The notes under the pieces: model-generated | Seen by the model: only the letters and a program-made list of their open reading frames with translations | Databases searched by the model: none | Told to the model about the DNA's origin: nothing | Position numbers and translations under genes: made by a program | Shown here: positions 831 through 30,499 of the stretch, one piece after another | Numbering within the stretch: position 1 is the first letter of the stretch | Layout: each line of letters starts with the position of its first letter | Assembly (NCBI GenBank): GCA_043826455.1 | Contig: JBDRQD010000068.1 | Span: 1-30,499 of the forward strand | Direction of reading: 5' to 3' | Length of the DNA stretch: 30,499 nucleotides | Source: Candidatus Bathyarchaeota archaeon | Lineage (GTDB): Archaea > Thermoproteota > Bathyarchaeia > TCS64

Positions 831-858
831 ATTTTGTCTCAGAATAATGAGACCAAAA
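831..858. repeat. Motif A copy 1: 11-6-11 palindromic site ATTTTGTCTCA-GAATAA-TGAGACCAAAA
   Basis: Inverted arms around a 6-bp spacer; the reverse complement aligns with copies at 4557, 5732 and 7031. Confidence 0.8.
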
Positions 859-933
859 CGACGTTTCAGCAGTCGCCGGCTTTTCTACACCCGAGAACTG
901 GGGAAAACGCGTACGAGATGTCTTTTCAAGATG

Positions 934-973
934 TTTTCTAACTCGTTTACCCTAGGGTAAATGAATTAGAAAA
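934..973. repeat. Motif B copy 1: perfect 16-bp palindrome TTTACCCTAGGGTAAA (946-961) within a 40-bp near-palindrome
   Basis: Arms TTTTCTAACTCGTTTACCCT / AGGGTAAATGAATTAGAAAA are complementary at 18 of 20 positions. Confidence 0.8.
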
Positions 974-1017
974 TGCAACTAAAACCTAGCGCTGATTCTG
1001 GAGGTCTATGTCATTTT

Positions 1018-2271
1018 CTAGATGAGCCCGCTCAAGACCTCAGACTCCTCCCCGGAGACGCCCAGGGCCGTTATGGAGAGCTTGTTGGTGTCGAATAACT
1101 GCTCCGAGACACGGCGCACGTCCTCGTCCGTCACGGCGTTCAGCTTAGCCACGGCCTCGTCCACTGTCCGGGGTCTACCCGACCTCAGCGTGGATACGCC
1201 GAGCTGGTGCATCCTCTGCCTGTTGTTCTCAGAGTTCAGTATTAAGAGGCCCACGGTCTTGTGTTTGACCTCCTCCAGCTTGGCAGGGTCTAGCCCCTGA
1301 TTCATGGCTTCCAGCTCTTTGAGCACGATCTCTGCGACTTCCCTCATGTTCGCTTTTCGTGTGCCCGCGAACACGCCAAAGGCGCCGACGTCCTCAAGAG
1401 CCTGGTTGTATGAGTATATGTTGTAGACGAGGCCCCGCCTCTCTCTAACCTCCTGGAACAGCTTTGAGCTGGCCCCCAGCCCCAGGTAGCTGCTGACTAT
1501 GGTCTGGGCCGCCATGTCCTCGTGCCCGTAGGGCGCGCCCTCTGTGGCTATGCAAAGCTGGACCTGCCCGGTGTCCTTGCTCACGAACATCCTGCCCGGG
1601 TTGTGGACTGGCTTAACGCGATTTCTCACTGGTTTACCTAGACCTTTTTCAGCGAATTTCTCTAGGTTCTGGACCAGTTTTTCGTGGTCTACCAGGCCTG
1701 TGGCCACGACTGTGAGCTCTCTTCTGTAGTGTTGCGCGTAGTATTCTCGGATGAGGTCTGTGCTCATCTCTTGGATGGTTTCCACTGTCCCTGCTATCGG
1801 GTGGGCTAGCCGGCTTCCTCTCCAAATGTTCTCAAGACACAGCTCGTGAATGAGACTGGAAGGATCGTCCTCCAGCTGCTTGATCTCCTCGAGGATCACC
1901 TGCCGCTCGTTCTCTATGTCCTGGTCTCTGAGGGCCGAGTTATGGTACATGTCCTGAAGCACCTCGGCCGCAAGGGCTAGGTCGTCGGCCATGACGCGGG
2001 CGTGGTACGCAGTCATGTCGCGGTCAGTGAAGGCGTTAAGGCTGCCACCGCGGTTCTCTATGGTCGACGAGATCTCCTGGGCCGTCCTTGTCTCTGTGCC
2101 TTTGAACAGGAGGTGCTCGAGGAAGTGACTGCAGCCCCATACGGCTTCCCCCTCGTCCCTGGATCCCACGTTCGCCCATAGGCCCAATGAGACGGACTTG
2201 GATGAGGGACTGTGTTCCGTTATCACTCTGACGCCGTTATGCAACAGCTCGTCTCTAAGCTCAATGGACAT
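1018..2271 (-). CDS. M16 (pitrilysin/MPP-like, M16B) zinc peptidase
   Basis: Inverted zincin motif HFLEH, VGSRDE, NAFT, ERQVILEE and C-terminal LFQEVRERRGLVY (R/Y pair). Confidence 0.93.
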   Translation of the reverse strand: MSIELRDELLHNGVRVITEHSPSSKSVSLGLWANVGSRDEGEAVWGCSHFLEHLLFKGTETRTAQEISSTIENRGGSLNAFTDRDMTAYHARVMADDLALAAEVLQDMYHNSALRDQDIENERQVILEEIKQLEDDPSSLIHELCLENIWRGSRLAHPIAGTVETIQEMSTDLIREYYAQHYRRELTVVATGLVDHEKLVQNLEKFAEKGLGKPVRNRVKPVHNPGRMFVSKDTGQVQLCIATEGAPYGHEDMAAQTIVSSYLGLGASSKLFQEVRERRGLVYNIYSYNQALEDVGAFGVFAGTRKANMREVAEIVLKELEAMNQGLDPAKLEEVKHKTVGLLILNSENNRQRMHQLGVSTLRSGRPRTVDEAVAKLNAVTDEDVRRVSEQLFDTNKLSITALGVSGEESEVLSGLI

Positions 2272-2509
2272 AGGCTACGCACCCCCCTTTATCGTCGTGG
2301 TAAATAAAATGATGCGTCTTCAAGCCTTTAGATGTGCTTAAATTGCCTTAAAATGGCTTGGATAGGTTTTGTGTCCAAGCGTTTTTCATCCTTTTATATC
2401 TACAAAGCACCCTCGAGTGAAAAGGTTAAAAAATGGCCCATTGGAGCGCATAGTTTTAACAATATCGTGTCAATTTTAGATCTCGTTGTTTTAGGCTTTA
2501 TAGATAAAG

Positions 2510-2527
2510 TACCTTCAAGATTATGGA
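2510..2527. repeat. Motif C copy 1: TACCTTCAAGATTATGGA
   Basis: Exact 18-bp match to 8806-8823. Confidence 0.75.
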
Positions 2528-2577
2528 CGTAAAATGTGTACATTTTTCTAGGTCGTGATAATGAGGACGCAGGCCCC

Positions 2578-3321
2578 TCAGGCCAAGGCCTCAGCCCTTT
2601 TCTTACCCTCCGGGCTCAGCGATATGTTGTATATTTCCGTCTCCCTTAATCCCAGAGAGGCGAGCATTCGGTCCATCAGGTTCTGCGTCTTTCTGTCTAA
2701 AAGGTATAGGTTTTTTATTGAAATATCTTTATCAGCTTTGATCCATTCTAGGATCTTTTCGTGGCGTATGCCCGTCTCAGTACTCAAGGATGGTGTGTCT
2801 GTGGGCTCTTCTTGGTCTCGCAGAGCGCTCAAGACCTTCATTGATAGGTATAGTTTCTCCAAGTCGCGGATATGGCCTGTTGTTATGGTTTCTAGGGTCG
2901 GCAGCTCGGTTCTTACGATGGTTTTCACGTTGTTTAGGGTAGGGGTTTTTTGTGTGAAAATGCTTAGTCTATGGGCTGTTTCTCGGCCTTTCTCTGTAAG
3001 GCTCCATAGGTCGTAGGTGTATCTTCCGTTGTAGTGTATTGTGGTGGGTTTCCCTCTTTCGGGTTCTTTCTGGACTAGTCCTGTGGCTTGTAGTGAGCTT
3101 AGCCAGTTGTTTAGCTCTTTTTTTGATAGTTTTACCCCATGTTTTCTGAGCTCGTTTTGCATGTCTAGCGTTGTAAGGTTTGGCTCCTTGGACTCTTTCA
3201 GTGTCAGGTATATGATTCTGGCGCTGTCGCTCATGAGGGGTCTCAGTGTTTTTTCGAAGGCTTCAGCCAGCTCGTCTTTAGTGTACCCGGCTTCAGAACC
3301 CGGTTCAGCTTGATCTACCAC
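2578..3321 (-). CDS. Hypothetical protein with two probable winged-helix DNA-binding domains
   Basis: 247-aa ORF. Segment ARIIYLTLKE...LSKKELNNWLSSLQATGLV...WSLTEKG has wHTH helix/wing pattern, and a second segment KVLSALRD...TPSLSTETGI...ISLSPEGK ends the same way. Confidence 0.65.
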   Translation of the reverse strand: MVDQAEPGSEAGYTKDELAEAFEKTLRPLMSDSARIIYLTLKESKEPNLTTLDMQNELRKHGVKLSKKELNNWLSSLQATGLVQKEPERGKPTTIHYNGRYTYDLWSLTEKGRETAHRLSIFTQKTPTLNNVKTIVRTELPTLETITTGHIRDLEKLYLSMKVLSALRDQEEPTDTPSLSTETGIRHEKILEWIKADKDISIKNLYLLDRKTQNLMDRMLASLGLRETEIYNISLSPEGKKRAEALA

Positions 3322-3328
3322 AATTTAA

Positions 3329-3353
3329 ATATTCAGGATTTTTCTGAATATAA
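3329..3353 (-). promoter_or_regulatory. Palindromic operator ATATTCAG-N7-CTGAATAT (3329-3351) overlapping the TATA box (TTATAT, 3348-3353, minus strand) of the wHTH gene
   Basis: Perfect 8-bp inverted repeat. The TATA-like box lies 27 bp upstream of the GTG at 3321, consistent with a leaderless transcript. Confidence 0.55.
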
Positions 3354-3438
3354 GTTTTATGTTTACACCCCGTAAAAAATCGGAATTATCGAGGAAAGGC
3401 ATTAAAATACACCCAATCAAAGTAACTATGATGAAACC

Positions 3439-4422
3439 TTGGCGAAACCCAAAGTCTACGTGACGAGAAAACTGTTCCCGGAGGCAATTAAAATATTGGA
3501 GAAAGTCGCCCTAGTCGAGGTGTTCGAGGGCGAAGAGGACCCCGTGCCAAGAGAGCTTCTCCTAGAGAAAGTAAAAGACGTGACGGGACTACTCCCCATG
3601 CTCACAGATCAGATAAACGCGGAGCTCATGGATAGAGCTAAAAAGCTTAAAGTCGTGAGCAACTACGCCGTCGGGTACAACAACATCGACGTGGACGCCG
3701 CTACGCAGCGCGGTATAATGGTCACCAACACACCCGACGTGCTCACTGACACAACAGCGGACTGTGCCTTCATGCTTCTCATGGCCATATCCCGGAGGAT
3801 CGTCGAGGTGGACAAGTATGTCCGAGAAGGTAAATGGGTCAAGGCCTGGGGCCCCAAGATGCTTCTGGGCAGCGACATCAACGGAAAGACACTCGGAATA
3901 ATCGGCCTCGGCCGCATAGGCTCTGCCCTAGTTCCCCGCGCCAAGGGCTTCAAGATGAAAGTGATCTACAACGACATGTATCGAAGCCCCGAGAAGGAGA
4001 AGACGCTTGGAGTGGAGTACAGGGAGCTGGATGATCTCCTCAGAGAGGCGGACTACGTCAGCGTCCACGTGCCCCTCACAGACGAGACCAAGTACCTGAT
4101 AGGGGAGAGGGAGCTCAGCATCATGAAGCCCATGGCCTACTTGATAAACACGTCAAGAGGCCCCACAGTGGACGAGAGAGCCCTATACAAGGCGCTCAAA
4201 GACAGGGTGATCGCGGGAGCGGCCCTTGACGTCCACGAGAAGGAGCCCACGGACCCCGATAACCCCCTCCTGAGCCTGGACAACATAATTGTGGCGCCCC
4301 ACATCGGTAGCGCCACCATTGAGACCAGGATCGCCATGGCCCTGAGGGCAGCTAACAACATGGCCGCGGCTCTCAGAGGTGAAAAACCCCGTGACCTGTT
4401 GAATCCACAGGTCCTCTCATGA
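3439..4422 (+). CDS. gyaR: Glyoxylate reductase / D-glycerate dehydrogenase (D-isomer-specific 2-hydroxyacid dehydrogenase)
   Basis: YAVGYNNID, TNTPDVLT, GIIGLGRIG (Rossmann), LINTSRG, LDVHEKEP, APHIGSAT. Confidence 0.9.
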   Translation: MAKPKVYVTRKLFPEAIKILEKVALVEVFEGEEDPVPRELLLEKVKDVTGLLPMLTDQINAELMDRAKKLKVVSNYAVGYNNIDVDAATQRGIMVTNTPDVLTDTTADCAFMLLMAISRRIVEVDKYVREGKWVKAWGPKMLLGSDINGKTLGIIGLGRIGSALVPRAKGFKMKVIYNDMYRSPEKEKTLGVEYRELDDLLREADYVSVHVPLTDETKYLIGERELSIMKPMAYLINTSRGPTVDERALYKALKDRVIAGAALDVHEKEPTDPDNPLLSLDNIIVAPHIGSATIETRIAMALRAANNMAAALRGEKPRDLLNPQVLS

Positions 4423-4445
4423 TTTTTCATTAAAAATATCATTCA

Positions 4446-4466
4446 ATACCCCTAGGGTAAATGAGT
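4446..4466. repeat. Motif B copy 2: ATACCCCTAGGGTAAATGAGT
   Basis: Right arm AGGGTAAATGA is identical to copy 1; left arm is degenerate. Confidence 0.7.
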
Positions 4467-4556
4467 TTAAAATGTTCGTGAAATTGTTACGAAAAACTGT
4501 ATTCAGCATCCGGTGAAAGATGATTTGCGTGAGCCCCAAAACCACCCCAACACGGG

Positions 4557-4584
4557 TTTTTGTCCCACAATTCTGAGACGAAAA
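4557..4584. repeat. Motif A copy 2: TTTTTGTCCCA-CAATTC-TGAGACGAAAA
   Basis: 11-6-11 inverted arms in the convergent gyaR/tdh gap. Confidence 0.8.
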
Positions 4585-4689
4585 AGCTGTTTTCACCTAT
4601 TTAAAATGAGATCAACAGTAAAAAAACGTATTCATGCGTCAGGATTTACTAAGAGAAAAGAATCCTACGCCACCCTGGAAACGATTAGA

Positions 4690-5649
4690 CTAAAGCAGCC
4701 CCTTCTTGTGCCTCTCACCAAGCACCTTAAGCATGTCCTCCACCATGGATGGAAGATCATACTCCGGCTTCCAGCCCCACTCCTCCCTGGCCGCGGAATC
4801 ATCCAAGCTCTTAGGCCAAGAGTCCGCGATGGCCTGCCTGTAGTCTGGCTCGTACGTGACCTTGAACCCTGGTATGTGCCGCTTCATCTCCCTGGCCAGC
4901 TCCCGGGGGTTGAAGCTCAGGGCCCCTATGTTGAAGTCGCAGTGGTGCCGAAGACTCTCCAAGGGCGCGTCCATGAGCTGAGTGAAAGCCTTGAGACAGT
5001 CAGGCATATACATCATGGGTAGAACCGTGTCATCCTTGAGGAAGCACCTGTACTCCTTCTTCTTAATAGCCTCGTAGAATATCTCCACGGCGTAGTCAGT
5101 GGTGCCGCCACCCGGCGGGGCCACGTTGCTGATTATCCCGGGGAGCCTGGCGCCGCGGACATCCACCCCATACTTCTCGAAATAGTAGTTACCCAGAAGC
5201 TCACCCACGACCTTGGTGATACCGTATATGGTCCTGGGCTTCTGAACCGTCTCCTGGGGAGTCAGCATCCTGGGGGTCTCGGGGCCGAAGGCGGCTATGG
5301 AGCTGGGGTGGAAGACCCTCAGCTTCATGTCTCTGGCCAGGTTGAGGACGTTACGGAAGCCCTCAACGTTGATGGCCCACGCCAGGTCCGGGTTCCTCTC
5401 CCCCGTGGCTGACAGTATGGCGGCCAGGTGGTACACGGCGTCTATCTCATGCTCCTTCACGACCCTCTCCAGCTGGTCCTTTTTCAGGACGTCCAGAACC
5501 TCGAAGGGGCCACTGTGGCCCTCATCCTTCTTGATGTCTGACGCGACCACGTTGTCCTTACCATATATCTCTCTGAGCCTCGGTGTAAGCTCGGAGCCGA
5601 TCTGGCCCAAAGCGCCTGTCACTAGGACACGGCCTATGTCTCCGCCCAT
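4690..5649 (-). CDS. tdh: L-threonine 3-dehydrogenase, SDR (GalE-like) type
   Basis: TGALGQIG nucleotide-binding motif, HLAAILSATGE, PSSIAAFG, YGITK catalytic YxxxK, PGGGTTDYA, RQAIADSWP; divergent from kbl. ATG at 5649 follows GAGGG; alternative TTG at 5661. Confidence 0.9.
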   Translation of the reverse strand: MGGDIGRVLVTGALGQIGSELTPRLREIYGKDNVVASDIKKDEGHSGPFEVLDVLKKDQLERVVKEHEIDAVYHLAAILSATGERNPDLAWAINVEGFRNVLNLARDMKLRVFHPSSIAAFGPETPRMLTPQETVQKPRTIYGITKVVGELLGNYYFEKYGVDVRGARLPGIISNVAPPGGGTTDYAVEIFYEAIKKKEYRCFLKDDTVLPMMYMPDCLKAFTQLMDAPLESLRHHCDFNIGALSFNPRELAREMKRHIPGFKVTYEPDYRQAIADSWPKSLDDSAAREEWGWKPEYDLPSMVEDMLKVLGERHKKGLL

Positions 5650-5731
5650 TGGAACCCTCAAATTAGCTTAACTTTTAGGGATATAATTCCTTCCTTCCAC
5701 CAAATATTCACGGTGGCCGCGGTCCCCCGGT

Positions 5732-5759
5732 TTTTTATCTCAACATTCTGAGACAAAGC
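5732..5759. repeat. Motif A copy 3: TTTTTATCTCA-ACATTC-TGAGACAAAGC
   Basis: 11-6-11 inverted arms between the divergent tdh and kbl promoters. Confidence 0.8.
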
Positions 5760-5822
5760 CCGGGTTTCACCGGGAAAACGTTAAAGGTTCAGCCACGATT
5801 CGATGGATTAGAAGGTTCAACG

Positions 5823-7016
5823 ATGAGAGACCCTACAGGATTCCTTAGAACAGAGTACGAGGACCTCGTGGAGAAGGCCCTGGACTGGAAGCTGAAGGAG
5901 CTTCAGGGGCCCAGCGAGCCCCTATCCATGGTGGATGGGAGAGAGGTGATCGTGCTGTGCGCCAACAACTACCTGGGGCTGACGACCCACCCCAAGCTCA
6001 AGAGGGCCGCCACGAAGGCCATCAAGATGTACGGCGTGGGCTCGGGCGCCGTGAGGGCCATCTCGGGCACCATGGACGTGCATATGGAGCTGGAGAGGCG
6101 GCTGGCCAGGTTCAAGGGCGCCGAGGCCAGCCTCACCTACCCTACAGGGTTTATGGCCAACTCCGGCCTGATACCGCAGCTCGTTGGGGAGGGCGACCTG
6201 ATAATCAGCGACGAGCTGAACCACGGCAGCATCATAGACGGCGTCAGGCTGTCCAGGGCGGAGAGGACGGTTTACAAGCACAACGACATGGACAGCCTCG
6301 CCCATGTGCTGGAGGAGGCGGAGAAGCACAGCCCCGCCTACCGGCGGATACTCATAATCACTGACGGCGTCTTCAGCATGGACGGCGATATGGCCCCCCT
6401 GGACCAGGTGGCCAAGCTGGGCAAGGAGCACGGCGCCATGGTCTACGCGGACGACGCCCACGGCGAGGGTGTTCTGGGCAAAGGGGGCAGGGGCATAGTG
6501 AGCCACTTCGGGTTAACCCATGAGGATGTCCACGTGGAGATGGGCACCTTCAGCAAAGCGTATGGCACTATCGGCGGGCACATATCGGGCTCCGATGCCC
6601 TGGTCAAGTTCGCGTGGAACAAGAGCCGCACATGGCTCCTCAGCAGCAGCCACCCGCCCGCCGTGGCCGCGGCCACCATAGCCGCCATCGATGTCCTGGA
6701 GAATGAGCCTAGGCATGTTAAGAACCTGTGGAAGAACACCGACTACTTCAAGAAGGCCGTGGAGGACCTGGGCTTCAACACAGGTAAGAGTCAGACCCCG
6801 ATTATACCCATCATCGTAGGGGACAGCCACAAGGCCAAGGCCCTTGCTGACAAGCTCTACGAGGCCGGCGTCTTCGTGGTCCCCATAGTGTTCCCCATGG
6901 TGGCCAGGGACCTGGCGCGGATCAGGACTCAGATGCACGCCAAGCTGACGAGGGAGCAGCTGGACACTGTCATAGAGAAGCTGGAGACCATCGGCAAGCA
7001 GCTGGACATAATTTAG
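5823..7016 (+). CDS. kbl: Glycine C-acetyltransferase (2-amino-3-ketobutyrate CoA ligase), PLP-dependent class II
   Basis: CANNYLGL, SDELNHGSIIDG, TDGVFSMDGD, DDAHGEG, GTFSKA (PLP lysine), ARIRTQM; context with tdh. Confidence 0.88.
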   Translation: MRDPTGFLRTEYEDLVEKALDWKLKELQGPSEPLSMVDGREVIVLCANNYLGLTTHPKLKRAATKAIKMYGVGSGAVRAISGTMDVHMELERRLARFKGAEASLTYPTGFMANSGLIPQLVGEGDLIISDELNHGSIIDGVRLSRAERTVYKHNDMDSLAHVLEEAEKHSPAYRRILIITDGVFSMDGDMAPLDQVAKLGKEHGAMVYADDAHGEGVLGKGGRGIVSHFGLTHEDVHVEMGTFSKAYGTIGGHISGSDALVKFAWNKSRTWLLSSSHPPAVAAATIAAIDVLENEPRHVKNLWKNTDYFKKAVEDLGFNTGKSQTPIIPIIVGDSHKAKALADKLYEAGVFVVPIVFPMVARDLARIRTQMHAKLTREQLDTVIEKLETIGKQLDII

Positions 7017-7030
7017 GGAAAAAATATCCT

Positions 7031-7058
7031 TTTTTGTTTCACTATTTTGAGACAACAC
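7031..7058. repeat. Motif A copy 4: TTTTTGTTTCA-CTATTT-TGAGACAACAC
   Basis: Occupies most of the 48-bp convergent kbl/nucS gap. Confidence 0.7.
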
Positions 7059-8574: not shown

Positions 8575-8805
8575 AAGACCAAGGAAACCATGAGCGAAGA
8601 GGCTTTTATTTGATTCGACGGCCGTGGGCCCTGATCCCCCTCCTCGGGGGTTATGGCCGGGGTTTCTATCCGTTCTGTGTGATCGATGCTTCGATCCCCC
8701 CTCTTCGGCCGTCTATGGGTTGACATGATCTTTGCACGCCGTATTGCATGGCTGTGTAAGATCGAGGTAACTTCGAAGGGTTTTTGTGGGGCCTTATTAA
8801 AAATA

Positions 8806-8823
8806 TACCTTCAAGATTATGGA
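8806..8823. repeat. Motif C copy 2: TACCTTCAAGATTATGGA
   Basis: Exact 18-bp match to 2510-2527. Confidence 0.75.
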
Positions 8824-9334
8824 TACGAGTTGTAACCTAAATAAGTTAGCGTGGATAAAACTATCTTATTCAGCTTATTTGGACGTTCCTCTGTTTTGTT
8901 CGGCGTCCTGTAGCCTGCAGGACCCTGATAGGCGTCGCCAGCCTCGGCTGGGGGTGAGCATCCAGTCTAATGATAAAAATATTCACCATTATATAGTCCC
9001 CCCCTACGTTTTTTGCACATCAACCCTCGTTGCCCTGTGCTTGATGTGATGAATGTGCCGTATTTTTGTATGGTATGAACAGCGCTTTTTCATAGATTCA
9101 TGCGCCGTCGGACCGGTTCTGTGGCTCCTTTTGGTGTGGGGCGTCCGTTTCCAGTCTATCTCGCTCTACCCCCCTCCCCCCTCTCTGCGGCTCCGGGTGC
9201 TGGCTGGATGCTTACCCGTCCGTGTCCTCATCCGTATCGCTTATTCAGTCTAGGACGTATGAGGCGGAAAAAGGTTTAACGTCTCTTTAGATTAACTTAC
9301 CTAAGAAAAGGGGAGAGCGCGGCTCCGTCTTTGG

Positions 9335-9505: not shown

Positions 9506-9600
9506 AATTTGACACTCCACATAATTATAGTATTTATGATTATAATAGTTTTTACTGTTAGCTTGTTTCACTCACAGGTTTAGAGCACATTTTGTGTTCA

Positions 9601-9616
9601 CTTACCCTAGGGTAAA
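9601..9616. repeat. Motif B copy 3: CTTACCCTAGGGTAAA
   Basis: 15/16 match to copy 1; ~40 bp downstream of the MFS stop. Confidence 0.75.
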
Positions 9617-9652
9617 CCTGTTAAAAGATCACTGAAAAACAGCCTTGGGCGC

Positions 9653-11032: not shown

Positions 11033-11401
11033 ATGAGCGCGAAGAACAACAAGGTCACCTGGATCACTTGCCCGGACTGCGGAGCCAAGATAGGCGTGGT
11101 TCTCTCGGTGGGTAAGGTGGCGGTCGCCCCAGCAGCCGCCTACGCAGCAGCCGCTGAGCCCCTGGAGGCTGAGGCTGAGTGGCCCCCCCAGCAGGACTTC
11201 AGAGCCAAGCTGGAGGCCGCGGGCGTGGACCTCGCGCTCGTGGACGTGGAAGAGGAAGGCGCCATGGTCTCCGTCAGCCCAAAGAAGTTCCTAGGAGACC
11301 TGTGGGGGCCTATAAACGACGCCATCAAGACCCTGGGCGGTAACTGGGTGCGCGACGGCAGGAACAGCCGCTGGGAGATCAGCCCTGAGCCTGAGGCCTA
11401 A
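11033..11401 (+). CDS. Hypothetical protein (122 aa) with N-terminal CPDC, Ala-rich linker and small C-terminal alpha/beta domain
   Basis: ATG at 11033 after an AT-rich intergenic region, with GC3-rich codons like neighbouring genes. The upstream part of the 10421 ORF is antisense to the MFS gene. Confidence 0.75.
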   Translation: MSAKNNKVTWITCPDCGAKIGVVLSVGKVAVAPAAAYAAAAEPLEAEAEWPPQQDFRAKLEAAGVDLALVDVEEEGAMVSVSPKKFLGDLWGPINDAIKTLGGNWVRDGRNSRWEISPEPEA

Positions 11402-11613
11402 AGGCTGCCCAATATCTCGGAGGCAACTTCCTTCGCCCACTGCCCCGTCCCCGGAGCTTTGGTAACCTTCTTCAGGTACTCGGCCCAGCTCAGCCCCAGG
11501 GCGTACCTCCACTGCGGGTAGGCTTTCTCCAGGTTACTGTAAGCCTGGAGGTGCTGCATGCAGTAAGCTGAGCCCTCCACCGCGGCTCTCACACAGACTC
11601 TGCACGCGTTCAT
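11398..11613 (-). CDS. Small Cys/His protein (71 aa) translationally coupled to topA
   Basis: C-x2-C-x10-C-x2-H followed by a Trp-rich helical part; ATGA overlap with the topA stop. Confidence 0.75.
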   Translation of the reverse strand: MNACRVCVRAAVEGSAYCMQHLQAYSNLEKAYPQWRYALGLSWAEYLKKVTKAPGTGQWAKEVASEILGSL

Positions 11614-28649: not shown

Positions 28650-29653
28650 TGTTTGTCGCTCCTCTTCCACTCGGTGTGTAGGTAGGTCACCTGGGGCGTC
28701 TCCTCGGGGTAGCCCGCGTCTCTGGCAGTCTTTCTGAGCTTGATGAGCCTCTTGGCTGGGCCCATGACGCTGCCCTTGAGGAGCAGGTAGTCTCCCTCGA
28801 CTAGGCCGTAGTTCTTGAACCCTCCTTTGGGGTTGACTCGGCCCGCGTCCTCTCCCATCATCATTATCCGTTTGTTGTACTCTGTTCTGTTGTGGAAGCC
28901 CATCTGGCCCGCCCTAGGCACCTGGGGTAGCACCCGTCTGGGTGACCAGGCGCCTATGCTGGCTACGGCTCTCTTCGATTTTCTGGATTTACGGGATAGG
29001 ATGCGTATGCCCCACCTCTTCACCGGGCCCTGGAACCCTTTGCCCTTGGTTACGCCCACGAGGTCGATGCTCTCCCCGTCTTTGAAGACGTCGCGTATGG
29101 TGATGGTCTTGCCGAGGAGACTCTTTGCGTAGGCGAACTGGCCCTCCATGGTTCCTCCGCTCACTGGGATCTCCATGATGTCGGGCGCCTTCTTGGGGAC
29201 GGCTGCGAGCCTGGGCTGGGTCGCCGTTATGACTCTTATCTGGGCGACCTTGTCGAGGCTCTTCTCGATCTCCGCCAGCTTCTCGGCTGGGTTGGGGTCC
29301 GTTGTGAAGGGTATTCTCCTGTACAGGTCTTTAGGCTGGTTTGCCATCCACGCCTCGGTCATGGCCTCTAGGCCGTCGTATGTCTTCTTGTAGGCGCGGA
29401 CTGCGATTACCAGCATGGGTGGAGTGTCTATTACGGTGGCAGCGGATTTTATCTCCTGCCCGTACTCAGGAACTCGTTCCCTGTCTTCTATGTAGAACAG
29501 GTGAGTCATGCCTGCCTTGTATCCTGCGAAGCCTACCAGCCCTGGCTCCTTGTCCAGGGTGGGCCAGAAAGAGACGCGTCCGTTTGGGTTTCTCGCCTTC
29601 TTGCGGGGCGAGTAGGACAACGACCCTTTCTTCGGTGAATGTACGCGTGGCAT
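28646..29653 (-). CDS. rpl3: 50S ribosomal protein uL3
   Basis: GFAGYKAGMTH, TKGKGFQGPVKRWG, PRAGQMGFHNRTEYNK, KGSVMGP. Confidence 0.97.
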   Translation of the reverse strand: MPRVHSPKKGSLSYSPRKKARNPNGRVSFWPTLDKEPGLVGFAGYKAGMTHLFYIEDRERVPEYGQEIKSAATVIDTPPMLVIAVRAYKKTYDGLEAMTEAWMANQPKDLYRRIPFTTDPNPAEKLAEIEKSLDKVAQIRVITATQPRLAAVPKKAPDIMEIPVSGGTMEGQFAYAKSLLGKTITIRDVFKDGESIDLVGVTKGKGFQGPVKRWGIRILSRKSRKSKRAVASIGAWSPRRVLPQVPRAGQMGFHNRTEYNKRIMMMGEDAGRVNPKGGFKNYGLVEGDYLLLKGSVMGPAKRLIKLRKTARDAGYPEETPQVTYLHTEWKRSDKQ

Positions 29654-29659
29654 TTAATG

Positions 29660-29712
29660 ACACTCCTATTTTTAGGCTGTAAAGAATCAACATGGCTTAG
29701 ATTTAAAGGATT
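29660..29712 (-). promoter_or_regulatory. Promoter (TATA TTTAAAT, 29701-29707) and RBS (GGAGTG, ~29661-29666) of the rpl3 operon
   Basis: Minus-strand TATA-like box ~50 bp upstream of the rpl3 ATG, with an SD-like sequence just before the start. Confidence 0.55.
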
Positions 29713-29868
29713 CGTAGAAGGTGGAGTAGTGTATCTACTGGTTTGTTTCTGTTTATTTTGTGTGTGTGGTGTGCATAGTTTAATGGTTGGTGTATAGTAA
29801 TGTGAGTATGTTGTAGGATTACGTTGCTGGTCTCTGGTTTTCGTTGTATGGTGGGTTTGGCGTTTCTC

Positions 29869-29904
29869 TGTGTGTGTGTGTGTGCGTTGGGGGGGGAGGG
29901 GGGG
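29869..29904. repeat. (TG)8 microsatellite followed by a G8-A-G7 run
   Basis: TGTGTGTGTGTGTGTG at 29869-29884 and GGGGGGGGAGGGGGGG at 29889-29904; a shorter (TG)5 lies at 29759-29768. Confidence 0.85.
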
Positions 29905-30048
29905 TCCTGTCGTCGTCATCATGATTCCCCTTTTTTTGGGCTTTTTTTCTGGATCGGAGGCTTTTTTCAGGTTCTTTTGTGGTGGTGGTCAGGGGTGTCA
30001 GCCGTCATCGCCGCCGTTGTTTTATGCGGGTTCGTTGGCTGCGCCGTT

Positions 30049-30499
30049 CTATGTGGTGTGGGCTGCACTCTGTTGTGGTTTGATGGCTTTTTTTGGGTAG
30101 GGGCATGTTGCGTTCAGCAAGCATTCGCCGCATATGGGACGCTGCGCTCTGCAGACCTCTCTCCCGAACCGGATGAAGGATAGGTGTACCTCCCTGTACC
30201 TGTCGGGGTAGGAGGCGTCCTCCAGCACCCTGCGGATGTCCTCGTAGGACGCGTTCCTGGGCACGATCTCCAGGCGCTTGCATATCCTCTCTATGTGCCT
30301 GTCCACCGGAACGACACGGTGCCCGGAGACGAACATAAGCGCCACGTCGGCCGTCTTGAACCCCACGCCGGGGAGCTCCACCAGCTCCTCCCGCGCCTCG
30401 GGGAGACTCTTATCGAATACCTCTGAGAGGTCCCCGCCGTACTTTTCCACAACCTCTCTGCTCACGGCCTTCAGGGTCCTGGCTCTCTGGTTGTGCATG
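30049..30499 (-). CDS. nth: Endonuclease III (HhH-GPD DNA glycosylase/AP lyase), 5' part outside the window
   Basis: HhH LPGVGFKTA with catalytic Lys, VPVDRH, and [4Fe-4S] motif C-x6-C-x2-C-x5-C (CRAQRPICGECLLNATC). Confidence 0.93.
   Translation of the reverse strand, partial: MHNQRARTLKAVSREVVEKYGGDLSEVFDKSLPEAREELVELPGVGFKTADVALMFVSGHRVVPVDRHIERICKRLEIVPRNASYEDIRRVLEDASYPDRYREVHLSFIRFGREVCRAQRPICGECLLNATCPYPKKAIKPQQSAAHTT

Follow-up and report, generated by a model that had tools for sequence, protein, structure and literature searches.

What are four related palindromes doing between the genes of one short stretch of an archaeal genome? The stretch (hereafter the window) is contig JBDRQD010000068.1 (C68), analysed over its whole length of 30,499 nucleotides, from assembly GCA_043826455.1 (2.95 Mb in 81 contigs, 42% AT) of a Candidatus Bathyarchaeota archaeon. 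The palindromes, which we call motif A, consist of 11-bp inverted arms around a 6-bp spacer. An initial sequence-only reading of the window offered two explanations for them: targets of a recombinase that shuffles gene cassettes, or binding sites of a chromosome-organising or transcription-roadblock protein. We find that the four sites form a real, conserved and apparently undescribed cluster. Our preferred reading, to which we give a probability of roughly 0.4, is that they are orientation-free landmark sites, of the kind represented by parS or datA, placed around an origin region.

The four 28-mers occur exactly where the sequence-only reading placed them and with the sequences it gave, and all are intergenic. 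Site 1 (831..858) lies between the convergent genes trmB and M16, 24 bp 3' of the trmB stop codon. Site 2 (4557..4584) lies between convergent gyaR and tdh and in most relatives is 1–19 bp from the tdh stop codon. Site 3 (5732..5759) separates the divergent pair tdh and kbl, and site 4 (7031..7058) separates convergent kbl and nucS, so that three locations are convergent, as already described, and one is divergent. The labels gyaR, tdh and kbl come from the sequence-only reading; Pfam agrees with them, and the names are putative. A genome-wide scan had been suggested, and we carried it out with a weight matrix built from 31 sites at 15 loci in other genomes, excluding the window. The sites score 34.9, 33.9, 30.8 and 21.7 (site 4 being the weakest), and nothing else in the 2.95 Mb scores above 15.6. 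When the matrix columns were permuted, 20 such matrices together produced one match scoring at least 18 and none scoring at least 22. The four are thus the only strong matches in the genome, all within 6.2 kb. The same scan bears out the claim that the topA–rpl3 half of the window has no copy, and on contig C63, which carries the ilvD side of the same gene block, it found no match scoring at least 14. A simpler symmetric pattern counted five matches in this genome, with the four sites among the matches listed.

Allowing two mismatches, the symmetric pattern is present in 55 of the 71 genomes of the family including this one, that is, in 54 of 70 relatives. By summing the table we obtain 129 matches per strand, compared with 11 matches in 9 genomes for a reversed control. 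Motif A also occurs in 5 of 6 genomes from another family within the order. Its copies in genus g4 are weak, and we did not find it in the examined regions of genomes G073 and G037. In family relatives it lies mostly inside one syntenic block, whose gene order, ilvD–rSAM (radical S-adenosylmethionine)–trmB–M16–wHTH (winged helix-turn-helix)–gyaR–tdh–kbl–nucS–MBL (metallo-beta-lactamase)–topA, is conserved to order level across the regions of 53 genomes that we compared. The strong copies in a genome occupy no more than 4–44 kb; for example, genome-wide lists place 7 of the 9 matches of G070 within 44 kb and all 4 of those of G065 within 12 kb. The regions were picked for holding either a motif A match or the wHTH gene, and they contain 111 sites scoring at least 18, from 46 genomes with a site. 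Of these, 48 are convergent, 41 divergent and 14 tandem, while 7 others lie at the edge of a fragment and a single one is inside a coding sequence. Because kin share positions, the 111 sites represent about seven recurring positions plus singletons and not 111 events. The positions turn over between genera and the genes remain in place.

The pooled sites have the consensus TTTTTGTCTCA-GAATTC-TGAGACAAAAA, which is fully palindromic, spacer included. The polarity that the sequence-only reading saw in an nnATT(C/T) spacer core does hold for the four window sites, whose spacers all read so on one strand, but it is not general: among 109 unique sites the core reads on one strand in 26, on both in 20 and on neither in 63, so the sites share no polarity. 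The two arms drift independently, compensatory pairs at variable positions being about as frequent as expected by chance (5 against 3.7, and 6 against 6.6). In the flanks, A/T content oscillates with a 10.5-bp period locked to the site in all seven position classes, and none of 2000 phase-shuffles equals this signal. These features suggest that motif A is likely duplex DNA read by a symmetric dimer, a putative protein that bends or wraps the flanks.

A second element of the block had been overlooked and emerged when we compared the DNA 3' of the wHTH stop codon. This element, module E, is about 185 bp long: one dyad, TGGAYA-N7-TRTCCA, is followed by the core GAAGGTA-N8-ATAAGG, then by AT-rich DNA and lastly by another dyad, with 146 bp between the two dyads. 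This genome has exactly three copies, all within the block: E1 (2359..2542, minus strand; dyads 2524–2542 and 2359–2377, core 2495–2516), between sites 1 and 2; E2 (8654..8838, minus strand; dyads 8820–8838 and 8654–8672, core 8791–8812); and a third upstream of ilvD (C63:8995–9178). Dyad spacing is 163–166 bp in 60 of 67 copies, and the middle is 64% AT, compared with 42% for the genome. The strict pattern occurs in 41 of 52 family relatives, compared with 2 of 198 other genomes, with weaker copies in families f2 and f4 and genera g28 and g29; no E was found outside the block in 871 kb (two gap-free contig stretches). On fragments that carry E, 78 of 84 motif A sites lie within 7 kb of it. 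E1 is not the promoter of M16, because three genera have it in the opposite orientation with respect to the adjacent genes and it persists where the downstream M16 gene has been lost. We consider E a candidate replication origin, with about an even chance of being one, and if so it would probably serve Orc1/Cdc6. The strict pattern fails in g28 and g29, the two genera without an orthologous Cdc6, and the two losses may be one event. In four genomes of these genera (G075, G076, G077 and G073) the Cdc6 homologues that we found are 29–34% identical, and G073 has a broken copy as well.

Composition gives some signs of an origin at the block. On a 384-kb gap-free contig of G088 the keto skew at fourfold-degenerate sites switches at the block with the sign expected of an origin (z = 5.66; 0 of 3000). 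With the block and the ribosomal operon left out, the switch ranks 3 of 300 cut points, and genes directed away from the block have a skew of -0.098 compared with -0.185 for those directed towards it (P = 2 x 10−5). Of the origin-type switches in G090 (487 kb), the best again falls at the block. The cdc6 gene is on the same contig as the block, 25, 51 and 119 kb off, in G065, G090 and G089, respectively; neither E nor motif A was found in about 6 kb around cdc6 in four genomes. The adjacency to cdc6 by which archaeal oriC are judged is therefore not seen for E, from which cdc6 lies at least 25 kb away; such adjacency is not universal, there being two exceptions in Thermococcus (PMC4640148). 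Three other compositional signals were rejected. Raw GC skew on the genome's own contigs was noise, and a local A+C skew also follows the ribosomal-operon promoter: strand composition is strongly asymmetric, the minus strand being A+C-rich, at 29500–30200 and 2750–3250, just downstream of the promoter regions of the ribosomal operon and of wHTH. Low GC content at third codon positions (GC3) in the wHTH gene, the lowest of the block in most genomes tabulated, is matched by 7% of crudely called genes.

Five observations are the basis of the landmark reading: confinement of motif A to one block, its placement in any intergenic orientation, independent arms, phased flanks and the three E modules alongside. 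A putative dimeric protein would bind and bend motif A, so that what the sites mark would be not individual genes but a stretch of chromosome, probably the one around the replication origin. The bound protein would organise, insulate or help segregate the region, or would titrate an initiation factor, by analogy with parS, SegB sites and datA-like clusters of origin recognition boxes (ORBs). The part of the sequence-only reading that envisaged a matS- or parS-like protein site agrees with how the sites cluster, with their indifference to orientation and with the independence of their arms, and as a function it is a candidate.

Several points weigh against this reading. Clustering in the relatives is partly a product of selection, because regions were picked by motif match or wHTH gene. 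No genome is closed, and because 100-N gaps interrupt the scaffolds of G036 and G069, distances in them are discounted. G088 and G090 belong to one genus, and the switch in G090 has P of about 0.1. G070 shows no keto switch over 99 kb, the skew of G032 and of the gapped G036 leans the opposite, terminus-type way, and the window genome's own contig C48 also has a skew point, with z = 3.05. Genes within 60 kb face the block more often than they face away (78 versus 37, and 66 versus 43), the ribosomal operon would be head-on to a fork starting at the block, and cdc6 was not found on the 384-kb G088 contig. In a comparison made by eye, E does not appear to match the ORB arrangement: its dyads are symmetric and lack a shared G-string. 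Only 9 of 57 E half-sites equal a common A half-site, and for this reason a common binder for A and E is not supported. Co-occurrence tests identified no binder of A among TrmB, wHTH, ParB and Cdc6. Finally, motif A is intragenic in 1 of 111 cases, whereas SegB sites are mostly intragenic (PMC12284271).

A more specific version goes further: the family would replicate from two to four non-ORB origin modules of 165 bp situated away from cdc6, with motif A as a centromere-like or Smc-positioning flank that operates without ParB, so that origin and centromere would form one archaeal domain. Taken whole, we think this proposal rather unlikely. Full-length Smc is present in four of four relatives tested; we did not find it in this assembly, possibly because of an assembly gap.

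The rival that survives best, though we still think it unlikely, is that motif A is a transcription-factor operator or roadblock for local genes, with copies at gene ends stopping read-through (into the E modules, say, or antisense into adjacent genes) and copies upstream tuning promoters. It would explain why nearly all sites are intergenic, why they adjoin the stop codons of tdh, trmB and kbl, and why, within a position class, sites keep much the same distance from the start codon (57–63 bp for kbl in 9 of 13 cases, and 85–92 bp for ilvD in 6 of 15). In genus g27 a site is kept upstream of a gene for an Lhr-type helicase in four genomes, even where the gene is on another piece. Yet 48 of the 103 sites outside coding sequence whose neighbours are both known are convergent, the flanked genes have no common pathway, and the positions turn over when the genes do not. 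A family-wide regulator without sites outside a 6–45 kb block would also be unusual.

That the block is instead a replication terminus, with motif A as matS- or Ter-like sites and the skew switch carrying the opposite meaning in this lineage, seems improbable. Skew switches at both ends of a replichore, the ribosomal operon and other genes are directed towards the block, and G032 and G036 lean terminus-type; moreover, strong promoters here have A+C-rich coding strands, so the usual sign of the skew may not hold. Against this, the two longest contigs are origin-type by the usual convention and cdc6 is close in three genomes. The orientations of E form no consistent trap across genera, and neither dif nor a conserved Xer was found.

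We regard as very improbable the idea that motif A acts as a hairpin in RNA or single-stranded DNA, such as a terminator, a processing site or a REP-like repeat. Many sites do lie just 3' of stop codons, and where the palindrome is imperfect, one strand could form a G-U pair in 114 of 160 cases. But compensation is not above chance, the wobble pairs are divided between the strands (23 same, 15 opposite), and the T run is 5' of the stem and the A run 3' of it. A search of 142 kb against Rfam gave no match, there are no dispersed copies, and the phased flanks suggest duplex DNA.

The other branch of the sequence-only reading, tyrosine-recombinase (dif/pdif-like) sites bounding mobile cassettes, has in its favour the 11-6-11 geometry, spacers that are identical about three times more often within genomes (7 of 127 pairs) than between them (103 of 5978), and a site at one junction of an old, lineage-wide inversion of the ilvD–Lsm segment in three of five genomes (G070, G068 and G071, the last assigned by position beside the same gene; not G032 or G072). 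The evidence on the other side is extensive. Inside the window none of the 6 spacer pairs is identical. It had been stated correctly that the window has no recombinase gene: six tyrosine-recombinase matches were found in the genome, all of them on contigs other than C68. (Three such genes are on contig C67, 46 kb long and probably an integrated element.) Nor did we find an XerA that is conserved. The protein most like XerA scores 169, below the family cut-off of 220, and was matched in only 7 of 61 genomes, mostly at about 25–33% identity. Searches for PF00589 came up empty in 19 of 70 relatives, among which are the site-bearing G007, G025, G032, G034 and G036 (92–96% complete); the assemblies are incomplete, yet no orthologue recurs. 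In archaeal dif the most conserved feature is TAA(N6-8)TTA at the borders between arms and spacer (PMC11840125), and none of 109 motif A sites has it. Thermococcales have one dif per chromosome and one XerA (PMC4640148, PMC2958812), whereas motif A is multi-copy, with 4 sites here and up to 9 in G070. Gene order and orientation are kept, for example with tdh and kbl divergent in 27 of 27 neighbouring pairs, and M16, gyaR or trmB are lost individually, never as a site-to-site unit. Recombinant joints were sought in Logan contigs, which contain no start, strand or level information, and among 15 of 21 joints from four sequencing runs none was at a site except for collinear pieces of one relative. 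Contigs of run X1, possibly the source sample, pass through the sites intact; runs X2, X3 and X21 contain relatives only, and an X3 contig 91% identical to the window is collinear across sites 2–4. The cassette reading is therefore already largely refuted, and we give it almost no credence.

Candidate binders of motif A were considered one at a time. Five site-bearing genomes have no trmB in the block, and in none of them did we find a TrmB orthologue; ParB is present in two of five genomes and was not found in this one, so both were rejected. Cdc6 is probably not the binder: motif A is strong in g29, which has no orthologous Cdc6, and weak in g4, a genus with both Cdc6 and E intact. Nor, probably, is the wHTH protein, which is gone from g29, a genus that keeps one strong site, and which has an operator of its own. 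The wHTH gene (2578..3321, minus strand) is single-copy and order-restricted and encodes 247 amino acids; model and fold searches identify a tandem winged-helix protein resembling MarR, PadR and ArsR, the second domain being barely tested, and its named homologues are from Candidatus Bathyarchaeota. Over its promoter lies motif F (3326..3354), a single-copy 11-7-11 palindrome that 35 of 37 regions have in this position and that the two g29 regions without wHTH lack; we predict that it is likely the gene's own autoregulatory operator. A link to WhiP is not supported: hidden Markov model (HMM) searches gave no homology, and a WhiP cluster among the look-alikes in the Atlas (0.86) is a lead only.

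The remaining block genes around the sites are consistent with their Pfam matches: a trmB-like gene, an M16 peptidase, an unnamed gene, gyaR (2-hydroxyacid dehydrogenase), tdh (of the NAD-dependent epimerase family), kbl (class I/II aminotransferase), nucS, a gene of metallo-beta-lactamase fold and a major facilitator superfamily (MFS) transporter. Among them lies a further palindrome, M2, which is long, genus-restricted and located at gene 3' ends. M2 occurs 100–125 bp inside sites 1 and 2: one copy (934..974) about 116 bp inside site 1, and one (4433..4473, minus strand) about 110 bp inside site 2. A third, at 9589..9629 where the MFS gene ends, has no motif A partner. The layout in the window is mirror-like: site 1, M2, E1, wHTH, F, M2, site 2. 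Further M2 copies are at 2921–2961 and C63:8044, with weaker ones on C8 and C13, and both ends of an inversion in G007 (L047) are near M2 copies.

Some neighbouring features are also unusual. A gene at 11048–11401 encodes a 117-residue protein with a CxxC motif, which is present in 43 of 45 family relatives and has motif A in its promoter in several genera. Our searches gave it no informative family or fold (best Z 5.8), although its C-terminal domain seems to be inserted in a 474-residue protein on C56 that resembles the large subunit of replication factor C (a weak tblastn match, labelled by eye). A 71-residue gene (11398–11613) resembles the C-terminal part of topoisomerase I, and many relatives have it upstream of topA. 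In the examined g4 blocks of G088, G089, G090, G086, G084 and G092 we did not detect topA. Positions 8970–9190 are a dispersed repeat, where contigs from three DNA runs stack up in large numbers.

By comparison with known systems, motif A appears to behave most like clusters of parS or SegB sites, or like the ORB cluster of Haloarcula oriC2, and it belongs to none of them. The parS sites of ParABS systems are likewise several orientation-free palindromes clustered in one region, near the origin (PMC11840125, PMC4368675), but motif A is 28 bp long with a 6-bp spacer, is accompanied by fixed-length E modules and has no conserved ParB, and its proximity to an origin is only inferred. SegB sites in Sulfolobales are archaeal palindromes, strongest at one locus and proposed to organise the chromosome. 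Their motif is 13 bp (TCTAGA-S-TCTAGA), 83.7% intragenic and also scattered (PMC12284271), whereas motif A has no scattered strong copies and its consensus does not fit the 13-bp motif; segAB was not recognised among the block genes, although no search was aimed at it. Module E resembles Sulfolobus oriC1, in which boxes flank an AT-rich stretch with an inner motif (the ORB/DUE/ORB plan of archaeal oriC, with ucm; PMC12141716, 10.64898/2026.08.15.744077), and the arrangement of A around E recalls the extra boxes near Haloarcula oriC2, proposed to be a titrating ORB cluster (PMC4010727). In contrast to archaeal oriC, E comes as three tandem modules about 6 kb apart, situated away from cdc6 and with dyads that are symmetric and share no G-string. 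Archaeal XerA/dif sites and the pdif islands of Acinetobacter share with motif A the 11-6-11 geometry and intergenic clusters flanking one or a few genes (PMC2958812, PMC4640148, PMC12907356); motif A differs in lacking TAA-N6-TTA, in being multi-copy without a conserved recombinase, and in flanking stable core genes. Finally, wHTH and E1 resemble Sulfolobus oriC3 (WhiP) in that a tandem winged-helix gene of similar length adjoins an origin-like module, but there is no HMM link, no TAC-repeat box was seen in E, and wHTH has its own operator. We found nothing published on motif A or on origins or chromosome landmarks of Bathyarchaeia in a literature search that left most subscription papers and supplements outside its reach.

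Bathyarchaeia are an abundant lineage of sediments. How archaeal chromosomes are segregated and organised outside a few models, and how Smc is positioned without ParB, are open questions (PMC12284271, PMC11840125). The block supplies four defined baits, A, E, F and M2, all of which lie wholly or almost wholly within about 20 kb. If E is indeed an origin, then rules that rely on ORBs and on adjacency to cdc6 would miss origins of this kind.

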